Shown here piece by piece: positions 1 through 4,618 of a stretch of DNA of 64,000 nt. The notes beneath the pieces are model-generated. The model was given only the letters and a program-made list of their open reading frames with translations, was not told the DNA's origin and did no database searches. The translations under genes were made by a program, and so were the position numbers. The DNA is taken from IMG/VR virus record IMGVR_UViG_3300025770_000012, positions 1 to 64,000 of that record; one strand, written 5' to 3'. This DNA is from a virus. Numbering within the stretch: the first letter of the stretch is position 1; each line of letters opens with the position of its first letter.

Positions 1-213
1 TTAATTCATCACACTTACCTATGTGTAGTCCACCCCAATCAACGCTTATAGCTGATCCTTTTGAAGCTATGGGAGAAAATTTCCTACTTACTTATAGTGT
101 CTCACGACAGTTTTGTAAGCGTTAACTAGATTACTCTAATTGATATAAATCCCACGTCTGACCCCCTACTTGTTTACCTCAGGGGTGATACGGTAGTATT
201 CCGTGCTTCGTGA
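1..213 (-). ncRNA. Candidate structured non-coding RNA or long 5' leader, truncated by the window edge
   Basis: No ORF in the track. Lies directly downstream of a consensus promoter. Several helices are fully paired only on the - strand via G-U pairs (34-48 with 116-130). GNRA-capped hairpins at 98-109 (GUGA) and 124-141 (GUAA). Confidence 0.55.
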
Positions 214-217
214 AATG

Positions 218-249
218 CAAATATAGGAGATAGCATCGATAAAACCAAA
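218..249 (-). promoter_or_regulatory. Bacteroidota housekeeping-sigma promoter (-33 TTTG / -7 TAnnTTTG), leftward
   Basis: On the - strand: TTTG (249-246), 20-nt spacer, TATATTTG (225-218). Matches the established Bacteroides/Flavobacterium consensus. Confidence 0.8.
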
Positions 250-472
250 CCTAAAATAAAATTTTTTCCCCGAGTATTAAGAAGTTGACCTGGAGGGCCA
301 TACTTCGTAGGGGTCCCCTTACCTATTGGGATAAGTTTTGAGATAGACTAAAATTTAAAAATTTGGTTTGTTAGTGAGTGTGTAGGGGTATTAGATAGAA
401 CACCCCACCGAGTTTTTGGTGGCCGAACGGCCCCACCAAATGTAAACATAGTTTAATCAAATCCTTTTAACC

Positions 473-793
473 ATGGCTAAAACAATTAGCAACAAAGTTG
501 ATTATGCTGCACGTAATGCAGCATATATCGGTAAGACACTACGTGTCGTTACCTGTAGTAAGGATACTAGACCTAAGAAGAAGGGCTTCTTCATTAGTCT
601 GGCATCCTCTAATATTAATAGTCGAGAGTTAATCTCGAGCTATAGCAGTAGCAGGCTAAAGCCTGGCTCCTTCGTGACCATCAATCAAGATGGATGGCTC
701 ACTGGTATTGCTTCCGTCTCCGACGTGAAAGCAATCCTAAAAGAAGACATAGCGTACAAGTCCGCTGTATCTTCTTTAAACTCCCTTAAATAG
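473..793 (+). CDS. Hypothetical basic early protein
   Basis: 106-aa ORF with A/T-rich initiation region, followed by a terminator. Confidence 0.7.
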   Translation: MAKTISNKVDYAARNAAYIGKTLRVVTCSKDTRPKKKGFFISLASSNINSRELISSYSSSRLKPGSFVTINQDGWLTGIASVSDVKAILKEDIAYKSAVSSLNSLK

Positions 794-804
794 GGAGTTT
801 TTTT
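778..804 (+). terminator. Intrinsic terminator
   Basis: aaactccct-taaat-agggagttt followed by a T run. Confidence 0.75.
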
Positions 805-852
805 AAATAATAGTATGTGATATAGTCCTATGGTCTAGTCACTTAGGTAACC

Positions 853-930
853 ATGTTGGTTAAGGTGAGGTGGGAGGGAGTGGGAGTCAATGTAATGACC
901 AGATCTCTCTCCCCATTTCACAGCCAATAT
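853..930 (+). other. Long imperfect RNA hairpin (possible RNase III-type processing site)
   Basis: atgttggtt/agccaatat, gtgaggtggg/cccatttcac, agggag/ctctct and gtca/tgac pair with multiple G-U pairs on the + strand; intergenic. Confidence 0.55.
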
Positions 931-1004
931 ATCTATCCATCTAATTCAAGCTATAACAAAGTATAGCACATTCAACAAATATTCATTTAAATTCATAAGA
1001 AAAC

Positions 1005-2299: not shown

Positions 2300-3217
2300 A
2301 TGAATGGAATTAAACTAGACTTAGGCCAAGACATAGGCACAGTCATAAAAGACGCACTATCTAAGATAGTAAATGAAGACAAAAAAATCTTCACAGACGC
2401 AATAGAAACCTTAGTACAAGAAGAAGTACAAAAGCTTAGACCTACTAAAGTAGTGATACCAGGGAGACCTATTCACATACTTAAGCAAAGAGCACATAAA
2501 AAGTTCAGGATAACTGCTACATTGTGTAACATAAGCAGACAGTGTATGTTAGTGGGGCCTGCAGGAACAGGTAAAACTACATTAGCTGCACAAGTAGCTA
2601 AAGCTGCAAATCTAAACTTCGCTGCTATCTCTTGCTCTGCAGGAATGAGTGAAGCACACCTAACCGGCAGAATGTTATTTAATGGGGAGTACGTAAGCTC
2701 TCAATTTGTTGAAATCTTTGAAAATGGAGGAGTATTTCTATTTGACGAGATAGACGCTGCAGATCCTAATACGTTATTAGTTATCAACTCTGCTTTGGCT
2801 AACGGATACATCAACCTAGTAAATAGGAAAGATAAACCCATAGCTAAAAGACATGGAGACACTGTTATTATAGTGGCAGGTAACTCATATGGTACAGGCT
2901 CTGATATTTATCACGGTAGAAACTACTTAGACGCAGCATTCCTTGATAGGTTTGCCTTGACTAAGATAGAAGTAGACTATGATGAAGAGTTAGAAAAATC
3001 CTTCGGTGCAGATATTTCCGATAAATTAGTAATCGGTAAGTTTCACCAGTTCAGAGCTAACGTAAAGAACTATGAAATTAAGCGCACTGTATCTACAAGA
3101 GCTATCATTGATGCTCTTATGCAAAAGAAAGCAGGATTAAGTATGCAAGGAATCTACGACAGATTCTTTCAAGGTTGGACTCCCGAAGAAATCATGAAAA
3201 CCAAAGGAGATGCGTAG
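2300..3217 (+). CDS. MoxR/CbbQ/CobS-like AAA+ ATPase
   Basis: Walker A GPAGTGKT, Walker B FLFDEID, sensor AGN, LDAAFLDRF arginine finger, STR sensor II. Confidence 0.9.
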   Translation: MNGIKLDLGQDIGTVIKDALSKIVNEDKKIFTDAIETLVQEEVQKLRPTKVVIPGRPIHILKQRAHKKFRITATLCNISRQCMLVGPAGTGKTTLAAQVAKAANLNFAAISCSAGMSEAHLTGRMLFNGEYVSSQFVEIFENGGVFLFDEIDAADPNTLLVINSALANGYINLVNRKDKPIAKRHGDTVIIVAGNSYGTGSDIYHGRNYLDAAFLDRFALTKIEVDYDEELEKSFGADISDKLVIGKFHQFRANVKNYEIKRTVSTRAIIDALMQKKAGLSMQGIYDRFFQGWTPEEIMKTKGDA

Positions 3218-4097
3218 AATGAAACAATACACCCCTGAATTTGTATCCTTCCTTAATTGGGAGGATACTTCAGAGGAAGGAGAAATGCTAACACATGAGT
3301 TCGCAGTATTTAAAGATGTTAAACATCTTCTAGATGGTATGGACGGAATTAAAAACAAATACAATCATGGCGTTGATGACCCAAGTTGGACTCATGGAGA
3401 GCTAGGCACAAGAGAAAGAACTAAACATTCAGTCTACTATGCCAAGCCTACAGCAAAAACAATTGCCAAAGTCAAAGAACTTAGAACTGAGTTAACCAAT
3501 ATTAAAGCTGTTAAAAACAACTTTAAGATAGCAACTAACAAACGTTCTAAGATTAGGTTTGACAATCACGGAGACGAGTTAGATATAAATAGATTAATGT
3601 GTGGAGCACCTGATTATTGGAGCATTAAAGCCAATAGTAAAGTTGAACCAGCTATTAAACTATTCCTAAATCTAACTCTATCTTGTGGAAATGGCGAGGA
3701 GAACTTCCAACGCTTAGCGGCTCTCACCGCGGTGGCCGCTGAACTGCTCCAACGAATGGGTAAAAATGTAGAGATTAAATGCATTGCACCAATTAGGAAA
3801 AGAGATGACGAAAGAATACTCAGACACGGAGTAATCTTTACAGTCAAGCGAGCTGAAGAACCAATAGATATATACAAGATAGCCTCTTTGGGATGTCCTG
3901 GATTATTTAGAGACTACATCTTCAGAGCTATAGGCAATTGTATAGAAAACAATGGTAATGATATGGGCTCTTCGGAGAAACTATCAGAAGACCATAGACA
4001 AGAACTAGGGATTGATTACATGATTGAACAACAATGGATCAACGGTAAAGAAACCCTATTTGTTGAAGACATCTTTTCACAGGAGATGGCCAAATAA
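3210..4097 (+). CDS. Putative degenerate vWA/CobT-like partner of the AAA ATPase
   Basis: Overlaps the AAA gene; GDELDINRLMCG pre-vWA motif followed by beta-strand LFLNLTLSCG and helix AAELLQRMG. Start may be 3219. Confidence 0.6.
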   Translation: MRRMKQYTPEFVSFLNWEDTSEEGEMLTHEFAVFKDVKHLLDGMDGIKNKYNHGVDDPSWTHGELGTRERTKHSVYYAKPTAKTIAKVKELRTELTNIKAVKNNFKIATNKRSKIRFDNHGDELDINRLMCGAPDYWSIKANSKVEPAIKLFLNLTLSCGNGEENFQRLAALTAVAAELLQRMGKNVEIKCIAPIRKRDDERILRHGVIFTVKRAEEPIDIYKIASLGCPGLFRDYIFRAIGNCIENNGNDMGSSEKLSEDHRQELGIDYMIEQQWINGKETLFVEDIFSQEMAK

Positions 4098-4177: not shown

Positions 4178-4618
4178 ATGTATAAAGAATTATACGCTGA
4201 AACCCTTGGGGGCTTTACGCACACAGGAGAAACAATAGAAGAAGCATGTTGCCTATCTGACGGATATTTAGACAGCAAACAAACTGAGTTCAAAGAACTG
4301 CTTAAAAATAATCTAGGAGACGTTGGGCTTAAGTCTGAACTATACCAAAAAGCTCTATACGAATTAGCACCAGCAAATCTCATAGAAGTATTCTTTACAG
4401 GAGTAATTATAGGACGCTTTGAATCCATGATGGAACGAGAGATTGATAAAGATGACTCACCAAACTCTGAAAAAGCAAAAGTGTTCTCTTCACTGAAGAA
4501 AGCAATTGAAATGTACTACCACATACTAGATAAAGTGAATGAAGACGACCACGAAGAAAAAGCATCGATGGAGAAAAACCTCCGAAAGTTACTCGAAGCT
4601 GCGTGTATGATACTATAA
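4178..4618 (+). CDS. Hypothetical protein, paralog of 4798-5076
   Basis: Shares LYxExLGxFxH and SExxQxxLYExxPxNLxExxxxGxxIG with the next gene. Confidence 0.8.
   Translation: MYKELYAETLGGFTHTGETIEEACCLSDGYLDSKQTEFKELLKNNLGDVGLKSELYQKALYELAPANLIEVFFTGVIIGRFESMMEREIDKDDSPNSEKAKVFSSLKKAIEMYYHILDKVNEDDHEEKASMEKNLRKLLEAACMIL

Follow-up and report, generated by a model that had tools for sequence, protein, structure and literature searches.

Few viruses of Bacteroidota are as abundant as the crAss-like phages. To our knowledge, their RNA biology is almost blank, apart from the non-coding RNAs of Cellulophaga phage phi14:2. We analyzed a stretch of viral DNA of 64,000 nucleotides (nt), positions 1 to 64,000 of the record IMGVR_UViG_3300025770_000012 (hereafter, the window), and found at its left edge most of a highly structured RNA of about 300 nt, which is probably a stand-alone gene for a trans-acting non-coding RNA (ncRNA). 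In phi14:2, abundant intergenic long non-coding RNAs (lncRNAs) of unexplained function occur at the g004-g005 and g005-g006 junctions; according to the preprint, they appear together with early genes, which are transcribed by the virion polymerase and have no common promoter motif (bioRxiv 10.1101/2020.03.07.982082). Both RNAs come from long gene-free gaps of marine crAss-like phages, phi14:2 being a phage of Flavobacteriia, and they differ in that the RNA of this analysis has a host-type promoter. A 17-nt core motif of our RNA was absent, with up to 3 mismatches allowed, from the whole phi14:2 record; the covariance model described below gave at most 6.8 bits, that is, noise, on the first 9 kilobases (kb) of phi14:2 with filters off, and nhmmer found nothing. 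The flanking proteins were not similar by BLASTP, and a suspected synteny of g006-g010 with the genes downstream of one copy of the RNA (locus L070) received no BLASTP support.

RNA-based processive antiterminators provide another comparison. The conAn2 element of pLS20-type plasmids measures 260-600 base pairs (bp) and acts only in cis (PMC8191782; PMC9378689 for such antiterminators more generally). Like conAn2, put and EAR, our RNA is structured, follows a promoter closely and opens a very long block of co-directional genes, and its size resembles that of conAn2. It differs from conAn2 in having no ConAn1-like partner gene and in that the late operon promoter comes after the RNA. The hosts here are Bacteroidota, whereas those of the antiterminators are Firmicutes or Proteobacteria, and Rfam contains no relation between these RNAs and ours.

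Phage phi29 encodes a structured packaging RNA (pRNA) that acts on the portal. Our RNA is likewise a structured phage product with its own promoter and heads a terminase/portal module; however, it is about twice the size, belongs to an unrelated phage group and has no Rfam match, and a role in a packaging motor would be an analogy only. ROOL (~580 nt) and GOLLD (~800 nt), both of which are held in Rfam, are larger still. Like our RNA, these large, highly structured RNAs of phages and prophages have strongly conserved unpaired stretches (bioRxiv 10.1101/2024.12.08.627333). They differ from it in that ours has only about 300 nt, no transfer RNA (tRNA) gene in the window and no match in Rfam.

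Recovery of the RNA across the contig join

The source record is an 84,947-bp viral contig, whose coordinates are given below as genome positions. Window positions 1-142 match genome positions 84806-84947 at 96%, with 1-126 identical and five mismatches in 127-142; this self-match is an overlap of both contig ends, and related contigs run straight through the join. Because one near-identical contig (L004, the same as L033 and L039) continues unbroken from a 106-amino acid (aa) gene via window position 1 into the sequence before 84806, position 1 is best read as an assembly wrap-around, not as a biological end. A covariance-model search placed the structured RNA at window 207 to 1 on the - strand and, beyond the join, at genome 84805 to 84711, about 302 nt in all, with its 3' end 16 nt before the ATG of a lysin-like gene. 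The 5' two-thirds (window 1-207, - strand) corresponded to model positions 1-228 of 323 and scored 186.9 bits (E-value 2.9e-54), the match being cut at its 3' end; the other contig end (L002 1406-1642, - strand) scored 210.6 bits over model positions 87-323.

An earlier, sequence-only reading of the window had proposed a promoter-driven ncRNA candidate at positions 1-249. The 5' part of the RNA does lie there, but the element extends past position 1, and its remainder is located at the opposite end of the contig. Recovering the sequence beyond position 1, as that reading advised, yielded the join and the rest of the RNA. The contig ends within one of the hairpins (P11), and about one-third of the RNA gene is hidden beyond the window edge, which is a practical warning for the annotation of circularly permuted viral contigs.

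The two copies of another hairpin, P4, at window 124-141 and genome 84929-84946 (L002 1624-1641), are different alleles. They differ at five sites, yet the stem is preserved (A-U to G-C and U-A to U-G), and the loop changes from GUAA to UUAG; the L004/L039 contig has the right-end allele. Probably, two strains were co-assembled and the contig broke at P4, where microdiversity probably stopped the assembler.

Homologs and classification

Homologs were sought by several routes. Among 30 loci collected by means of the lysin-like gene, only the L004 contig shared non-coding DNA with our locus, and the others had coding genes upstream. A repeated 11-mer led to one further relative, L041. Two copies of this 11-mer, TATCACCCCTG, lie 199 nt from each other within the RNA, one in helix P2 (5' strand; window 174-190) and one in helix P9 (3' strand; genome 84779-84795); the second copy diverges together with its P9 partner in other clades, so that the repeat is specific to the clade of the window. 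A four-way alignment of our own copy, L004, L041 and the right-end copy gave invariant blocks that were used as exact patterns, and each retrieved stretch was checked by BLAST. With GGGGGTCAGACGTGGGA, all 13 viral-contig stretches were homologous; with AGGAAATTTTCTCCCA, 19 of 28 were; and with a 19-mer, all 40 metagenome-contig stretches were. The pattern AAGCGTTGATTGGGGT was discarded, its 23 stretches being mostly chance and the real ones only two that were already known. Removal of duplicates left 40 distinct stretches.

The covariance model (R1; 323 positions, 76 pairs) was built from a 78-pair structure drawn on an alignment of 34 full-length sequences (A2). R1 found 62 copies in 97 sources (745,146 bases), of which 41 were distinct and 36 both distinct and full length; at 90% identity the latter cluster into 12 groups, and at 80% into 8. 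All carriers are contigs of marine viruses or marine metagenomes. As judged by BLAST, the similarity to distant members sets in near window 190 and stops 1-43 nt past the join, and the element is therefore discrete. Judged from these sequences, we are dealing with an uncatalogued RNA family of uncultured marine crAss-like phages.

None of the 4227 models of Rfam 15 matched anywhere in the window at its gathering threshold, so that the comparison with Rfam suggested by the sequence-only reading assigned no family. When L004 was searched across the join at a permissive E-value of up to 10, the RNA was touched only by RAGATH-9, at 17.9 bits against a threshold of 75.2, and in ten additional loci that carry homologs, no family matched within the RNA at E-values up to 5. 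A loose likeness to group I introns, which had also been proposed, found no support: Intron_gpI was not matched at E-values up to 10 or 5, the clue GACUACAC varies across the family, being part of the variable P9/P10 arms, and the sequence upstream is a promoter, not an exon. ARAGORN found no tRNA or transfer-messenger RNA in the window, and a pseudogene remnant was rejected when 33 upstream proteins from 15 related lysin-gene loci, compared by tblastn with the circularized genome, left no trace in the region.

Among 50,697 deposited phage records, blastn at its "distant" setting gave no match for window 1-1000, and none for the L070 copy at E-values up to 1. An invariant 21-mer had no match in the genomes of 185,579 species (one genome each); a second, degenerate 21-mer retrieved three stretches from the same genomes, with motif-only likeness and no true match. 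The model matched none of 151 Bacteroidota genomes, a sample searched with strict filters and without a positive control genome. Literature searches, which covered texts without supplementary files, found no description of the RNA.

Fold, covariation and strand

Pairing was evaluated on a model alignment of 41 distinct rows (A4). Of the alignment cells at paired positions, 89.9% could pair, compared with 80.7% when partners were shuffled and 41.7-54.6% when partners were slid by 1-3 columns. Changes on both sides occurred in 35 of the 76 pairs (26.9±2.1 after shuffling). The cells changed on both sides numbered 288, against 104.9±10.2 in shuffles, none of which reached this count in 500 trials, and 21-72 in the slid controls; the covariation in homologs by which the sequence-only reading proposed to judge its candidate is thus present. 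RNAalifold, applied to A2, predicted 45 pairs, 17 of which changed on both sides. Several pairs show four or five pair types, and therefore repeated independent changes are needed to account for them. We regard the slid control and the multi-type pairs as fairer evidence than the shuffles.

The pairing is specific to one strand, because G-U and U-G cells outnumber A-C and C-A cells by 335 to 101 in the family alignment. The region also appears to be non-coding: the longest stop-free stretch over six frames ranges from 32 to 91 aa, the best frame differs between sequences, and differences in the length of P4 are not multiples of three. The - strand of window 1-347 contains no open reading frame (ORF) of at least 30 aa, in line with the gene-free left edge described earlier, and the sole frame there is one of 40 aa on the + strand at 3-125, open at the window edge.

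The RNA has about 15 helices, with junction strands and two loops that are invariant throughout the family. A 5' domain comprises P1, P2 and P3, the last of which closes P4 and P5/P6; P7 joins it to a 3' domain, in which P8 closes P9 (with P10 and P11 inside) and P12, and a small terminal hairpin, P14, forms the end of the RNA. P12 and P14 lie beyond the window. The best-supported helices are P2, the outer part of P4, P5, P8, P9 and P12. P10, P11 and P14 are paired in 95.9-99.3% of cells, with only one or two pairs changed on both sides. When single segments were folded, every distinct variant of P1 (20), P2 (15), P5/P6 (14) and P12 (18) formed a hairpin, with differing arm sequences, and 20 of 21 distinct variants of P4 did so, the remaining one having no stem.

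All helices are read on the - strand. P1 (204-201/193-190) is a hairpin of ACGG with CCGU and a 7-nt loop, whose variants have 4-6 bp; it is paired in 62.5% of A4 cells. P2 (186-181/166-161) is paired in 100%, with two of six pairs changed on both sides (UG/UA/AU/CG), and relatives carry an extra GAAA-capped inner hairpin within it. P3 (155-150/74-69), also 100% paired, closes a three-way junction with P4 and P5/P6 and is flanked by the invariant strands GGGUCAGACGUGGGAUUUAUA (21 nt, 164-144) and AGGAAAUUUUCUCCCA (85-70). P4 (141-135/130-124), with a GUAA loop, is variable in length and absent in two relatives. At its position, L094 (~2810-2880) and L065 (~4250-4300) carry insertions of ~70 nt and ~40 nt, respectively, and P4 is thus a site of expansion that tolerates extra sequence. 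P5 (120-115/91-86) encloses P6 and is paired in 91.8%, with five of six pairs changed on both sides. P6 (109-106/101-98) has a GNRA-type GUGA loop, which is GGGA in L004, and two compensatory pairs relative to L041; all 14 distinct P5/P6 variants fold alike. P7 (70-65/53-48) is the weakest helix: a C-G to U-G change in L041 is compatible with pairing on the - strand only, and the inner stem is paired in 70.1% family-wide, its register differing between clades.

The 3' domain is partly outside the window. P8 pairs 43-38 with genome 84757-84762 and shows changes on both sides in five of seven pairs (for example, UA in 19 and CG in 17 sequences, or AU in 20 and GC in 15). P9 pairs 36-30 with genome 84788-84794 and is paired in 100%, again with five of seven pairs changed on both sides. 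P10 (26-23/14-11), with loop AUAGGUAA, is paired in 96.7%, its closing pair being GC in 19 and AU in 16 sequences. P11 (10-7/genome 84805-84802), which has the invariant loop AAUUAA (6-1), is paired in 99.3%, with one pair occurring as GU, GC, AU and CG. Pseudoknots drawn by eye (P8 with J11-9, the P7 loop with AAAUUUUC, and GAAAUUA with AAAUUUUC) were rejected, their partners being invariant or explained by the nested helices.

Most hairpins of the sequence-only reading recur in this fold: those at 190-204, 161-186, 124-141 and 98-109 are P1, P2, P4 and P6, and that at 10-25 is P10, now at 11-26. In the four-way alignment, hairpin-keeping changes comprised two double changes at 98-109, A-U to G-C in 124-141 and 10-25, and C-G to U-G in 48-70. 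The last hairpin is P7, which forms in the clade of the window but is weak across the family. The 15-bp long-range helix (116-130 with 34-48) of that reading did not hold up: it is paired in 82.0% of cells against 81.7% in shuffles, its covariation is 0.169 against 0.168, a value reached by 223 of 500 shuffles, and it clashes with P5 (115-120/86-91) and with P8 (38-43 paired with bases beyond the window). It looked strand-specific because its G/U-rich 3' strand tolerates any transition.

Promoter and transcription unit

The RNA is preceded on the - strand by the -7 box TATATTTG (TAnnTTTG; 218-225), at a spacing of 20 nt from a -33-like TTTG (246-249), the two lying within a pattern match at 218-249. 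The TTTG/TAnnTTTG consensus is what we take to be the Bacteroidota promoter, and a transcription start would be expected near 211-213. The motif had been described as a perfect promoter; it is indeed present, but by count it is at chance level, with 3 matches in the window against 2.26 expected and at least 3 in 37 of 100 shuffles. The promoter is supported instead because the box is conserved upstream of the RNA: TAnnTTTG occurs within 60 nt upstream of the model match in 30 of 33 loci, and of the three exceptions, two are contigs whose sequence begins at that point. The box lies 6-33 nt upstream in these 30 loci, and the RNA starts within about 10-35 nt of it, with no ORF between them; the sequence further upstream is not conserved, and the TTTG is not clearly kept in relatives. 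Homologs, covariation, conservation of the promoter and the excess of G-U pairs together bear out a phage ncRNA on the - strand behind a Bacteroidota-type promoter.

The RNA is always on the same strand as, and at the head of, an arm of packaging and head genes (~60 kb, co-directional). The first conserved gene of this arm is GroES-like; it was located in 20 of 31 loci, at distances from the RNA of 75 to 2092 nt, and in all 20 a TAnnTTTG box ends 14-24 nt before its ATG; in the source genome, this box is again TATATTTG. In the available flanks of the other 11 loci, the gene was not found by motif. Because the late operon has its own box, the RNA and its promoter make up a separate unit upstream of the late operon promoter. 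The interval between the RNA and the GroES-like promoter contains from zero to four "cargo" genes, which vary among phages (in the source genome, the 198-aa lysin-like gene), and a slot for cargo genes is thus located behind the RNA unit. The genes directly after the RNA are mutually unrelated: lysin-like (phrog_3000), DUF5675, SET, Peptidase_M15_3, a weak DUF5872, other small ORFs or none. In 11 of the 33 loci, a second TAnnTTTG box follows 39-63 nt after the RNA, with the first ORF at +73 to +93, and most of these loci have a T-run right at the RNA end; in one locus, the flank is too short to judge.

Proposed role and alternative explanations

We favor, as the probable explanation, a stand-alone gene for a structured ncRNA of ~300 nt that acts in trans. 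Host RNA polymerase would start at the Bacteroidota-type promoter (TATATTTG, 225-218) and run leftward across the join to about 84711, and the RNA would then act in trans as a discrete, stably folded product and would not regulate the gene that follows. Contacts with a conserved partner, a protein or RNA machine of the host or phage, may be made through the invariant single strands, and a cargo gene, where present, would ride on the RNA promoter. A bolder version, which we consider rather improbable, is that a new RNA machine has this RNA at its core, either as a ribozyme or as the RNA part of a ribonucleoprotein, and is used in trans during virion production; its active or docking site would be built from GGGUCAGACGUGGGAUUUAUA, AGGAAAUUUUCUCCCA, the AAUUAA loop and AGCACUG, and a role at the terminase/portal module in the manner of pRNA, or an action on a conserved host machine, is a possibility. 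RNAs of such a kind have usually proved to be catalytic (ribozymes), to form the core of a ribonucleoprotein or to bind a central machine directly. Here, about 15 helices are packed into ~300 nt, and the junction strands are invariant while the neighboring proteins diverge. The alignment, covariance model, secondary structure and boundaries allow RNA synthesis, probing, imaging and reporter tests without a cultured phage.

Several observations weigh against a stand-alone, trans-acting RNA or weaken its support. In 21 of the 33 loci, an ORF begins 11-39 nt after the RNA with no box between, and in those loci the RNA is at least physically a 5' leader; its fixed position at the head of the ~60-kb arm fits a cis role equally well. 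The partner and the activity are a proposal, and the 5' and 3' ends of the RNA are predicted positions. Contigs from RNA libraries (depth 2-5.5; six of 20 listed runs are RNA libraries, and four of them were examined) hold pieces of the locus: those of run X12 include portions of the 106-aa gene, of the RNA and of the lysin gene, those of X16 and X17 include only the end of the 106-aa gene, and X18 is the only run with the RNA alone, as an internal piece of 154 nt (L039 3314-3467). Such pieces are a hint, indicating presence rather than a transcript, its ends or its strand, and DNA carry-over is possible; stretches that lack coverage carry no evidential weight. With regard to the fold, the measure "further pair types" gave 74, less than the 79.9 of the shuffles. 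Because A4 was fitted to the model structure and its rows are related, the shuffle control is generous and overstates significance. P3 hardly varies, five of its six pairs never doing so, and gives no covariation signal, and P1, P6 and P7 are paired in only 62.5-73.5% of A4 cells owing to register differences. The folding energy is weak and strand-blind, with z-scores of -2.04 for the whole RNA in sense and -2.32 in antisense. The 215-nt fragment in the window was no better than shuffles (z = -0.96 on the - strand, -1.39 on the + strand), so that the energy comparison put forward by the sequence-only reading turned out negative; the window alone gives little support.

The cis role that most deserves attention, although it is unlikely in our judgment, is that of an RNA modifying RNA polymerase by processive antitermination, as in HK022 put, EAR and conAn2. 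The nascent RNA would stay on its polymerase, which would read through terminators along the virion arm. This agrees with a location that is always directly behind the promoter, on the same strand and at the head of the ~60-kb arm, with a size within the range of conAn2, 260-600 bp (PMC8191782), and with the 21 of 33 loci whose next gene, so close behind, has no promoter of its own; invariant single strands would also suit binding to a conserved machine such as RNA polymerase. However, a separate TAnnTTTG promoter serves the conserved late operon in all 20 loci where it was found; in 11 of 33 loci that promoter lies 39-63 nt after the RNA, mostly behind a T-run, and most late transcripts would therefore never carry the RNA. 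No ConAn1-like gene stands between promoter and RNA, and neither sequence nor Rfam links the RNA to any antiterminator RNA.

A cis role restricted to the next gene, here the 198-aa lysin-like gene, as a switchable 5' leader resembling a riboswitch or attenuator, is very improbable. In its favor, only 16 nt separate the RNA from the ATG in the clade of the window, a purine-rich stretch, AAGGGAG, is overlapped by the final hairpin, and alternative pairings such as the 15-bp helix can be drawn in the window sequence. Yet there is no conserved association with one downstream gene, the sole alternative helix that was proposed lacks covariation, so that no two mutually exclusive conserved folds are seen, known leaders are far smaller than this RNA of ~300 nt and 15 helices, and no riboswitch family in Rfam matched. 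The earlier version of this idea, a switchable leader for the late operon, is not supported, on account of the same helix and of the varying next gene, and also because the late operon has its own promoter in all 20 loci. The least credible explanation, to which we give hardly any weight, is an element of the DNA itself (a replication origin, a packaging site or a terminus) at the strand switch, with hairpins formed in DNA. The position in a divergent gap where the GC skew changes sign, the contig ends that fall inside the element, compensatory hairpin changes that are symmetric and would also fit DNA cruciforms, and an antisense strand that folds as well as the sense strand are all compatible with it. 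Against this stand the ratio of G-U/U-G to A-C/C-A cells (335 to 101), a promoter that 30 of 33 loci keep on one side, with its distance fixed, and the long-range nested helices P3, P5, P8 and P9, which are foreign to duplex-DNA sites; moreover, the contig end is an assembly overlap, and a search for iterons found none, only one 11-nt two-copy repeat.

Genomic setting

The first plausible gene on the other side of the RNA is the 106-aa ORF on the + strand (473-793). Genes on the + strand occupy 0.5-22 kb and those on the - strand the rest, and the RNA region is a divergent gap between two gene arms because gene strands switch there; the GC skew changes sign in this gap. On the - strand, the gap runs to the 198-aa gene, whose ATG is at 84695 and which matches phrog_3000 (2.1e-34) and an endolysin PHROG (1.5e-17). 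It is followed on the - strand by the GroES-like gene and then by genes for the terminase large subunit, the portal and the major head protein; the terminase is 40-42% identical to crAss-like phage terminases.

The lysin-like gene (genome 84099-84695; L002 794-1390, - strand) encodes a protein that is 83% identical to its L004 counterpart, while the flanking DNA is ~99% identical; recombination seems to be frequent in the cargo slot, which resembles a hot spot. In one metagenome contig, L104, a long perfect hairpin lies at 640-818, ~350 nt downstream of the RNA, and several microRNA-precursor families reach it only below threshold (for example, MIR9555, 45.4 bits against 119); it is probably merely a long inverted repeat.

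Between the RNA promoter and the 106-aa gene, a GC hairpin, GGCCG-UU-CGGCC, is located at window 418-432; L004 has GGCCA-CU-UGGCC there, a compensatory change from G-C to A-U. A terminator-like CCACC...GGTGG with a T-run on the - strand lies beside this hairpin and could stop a leftward transcript coming from upstream of the RNA promoter. Near the start of the + strand arm, window 2300-4097 encodes an AAA_5 ATPase (phrog_249, "porphyrin biosynthesis", CobS-like), followed by a DUF7192 protein.

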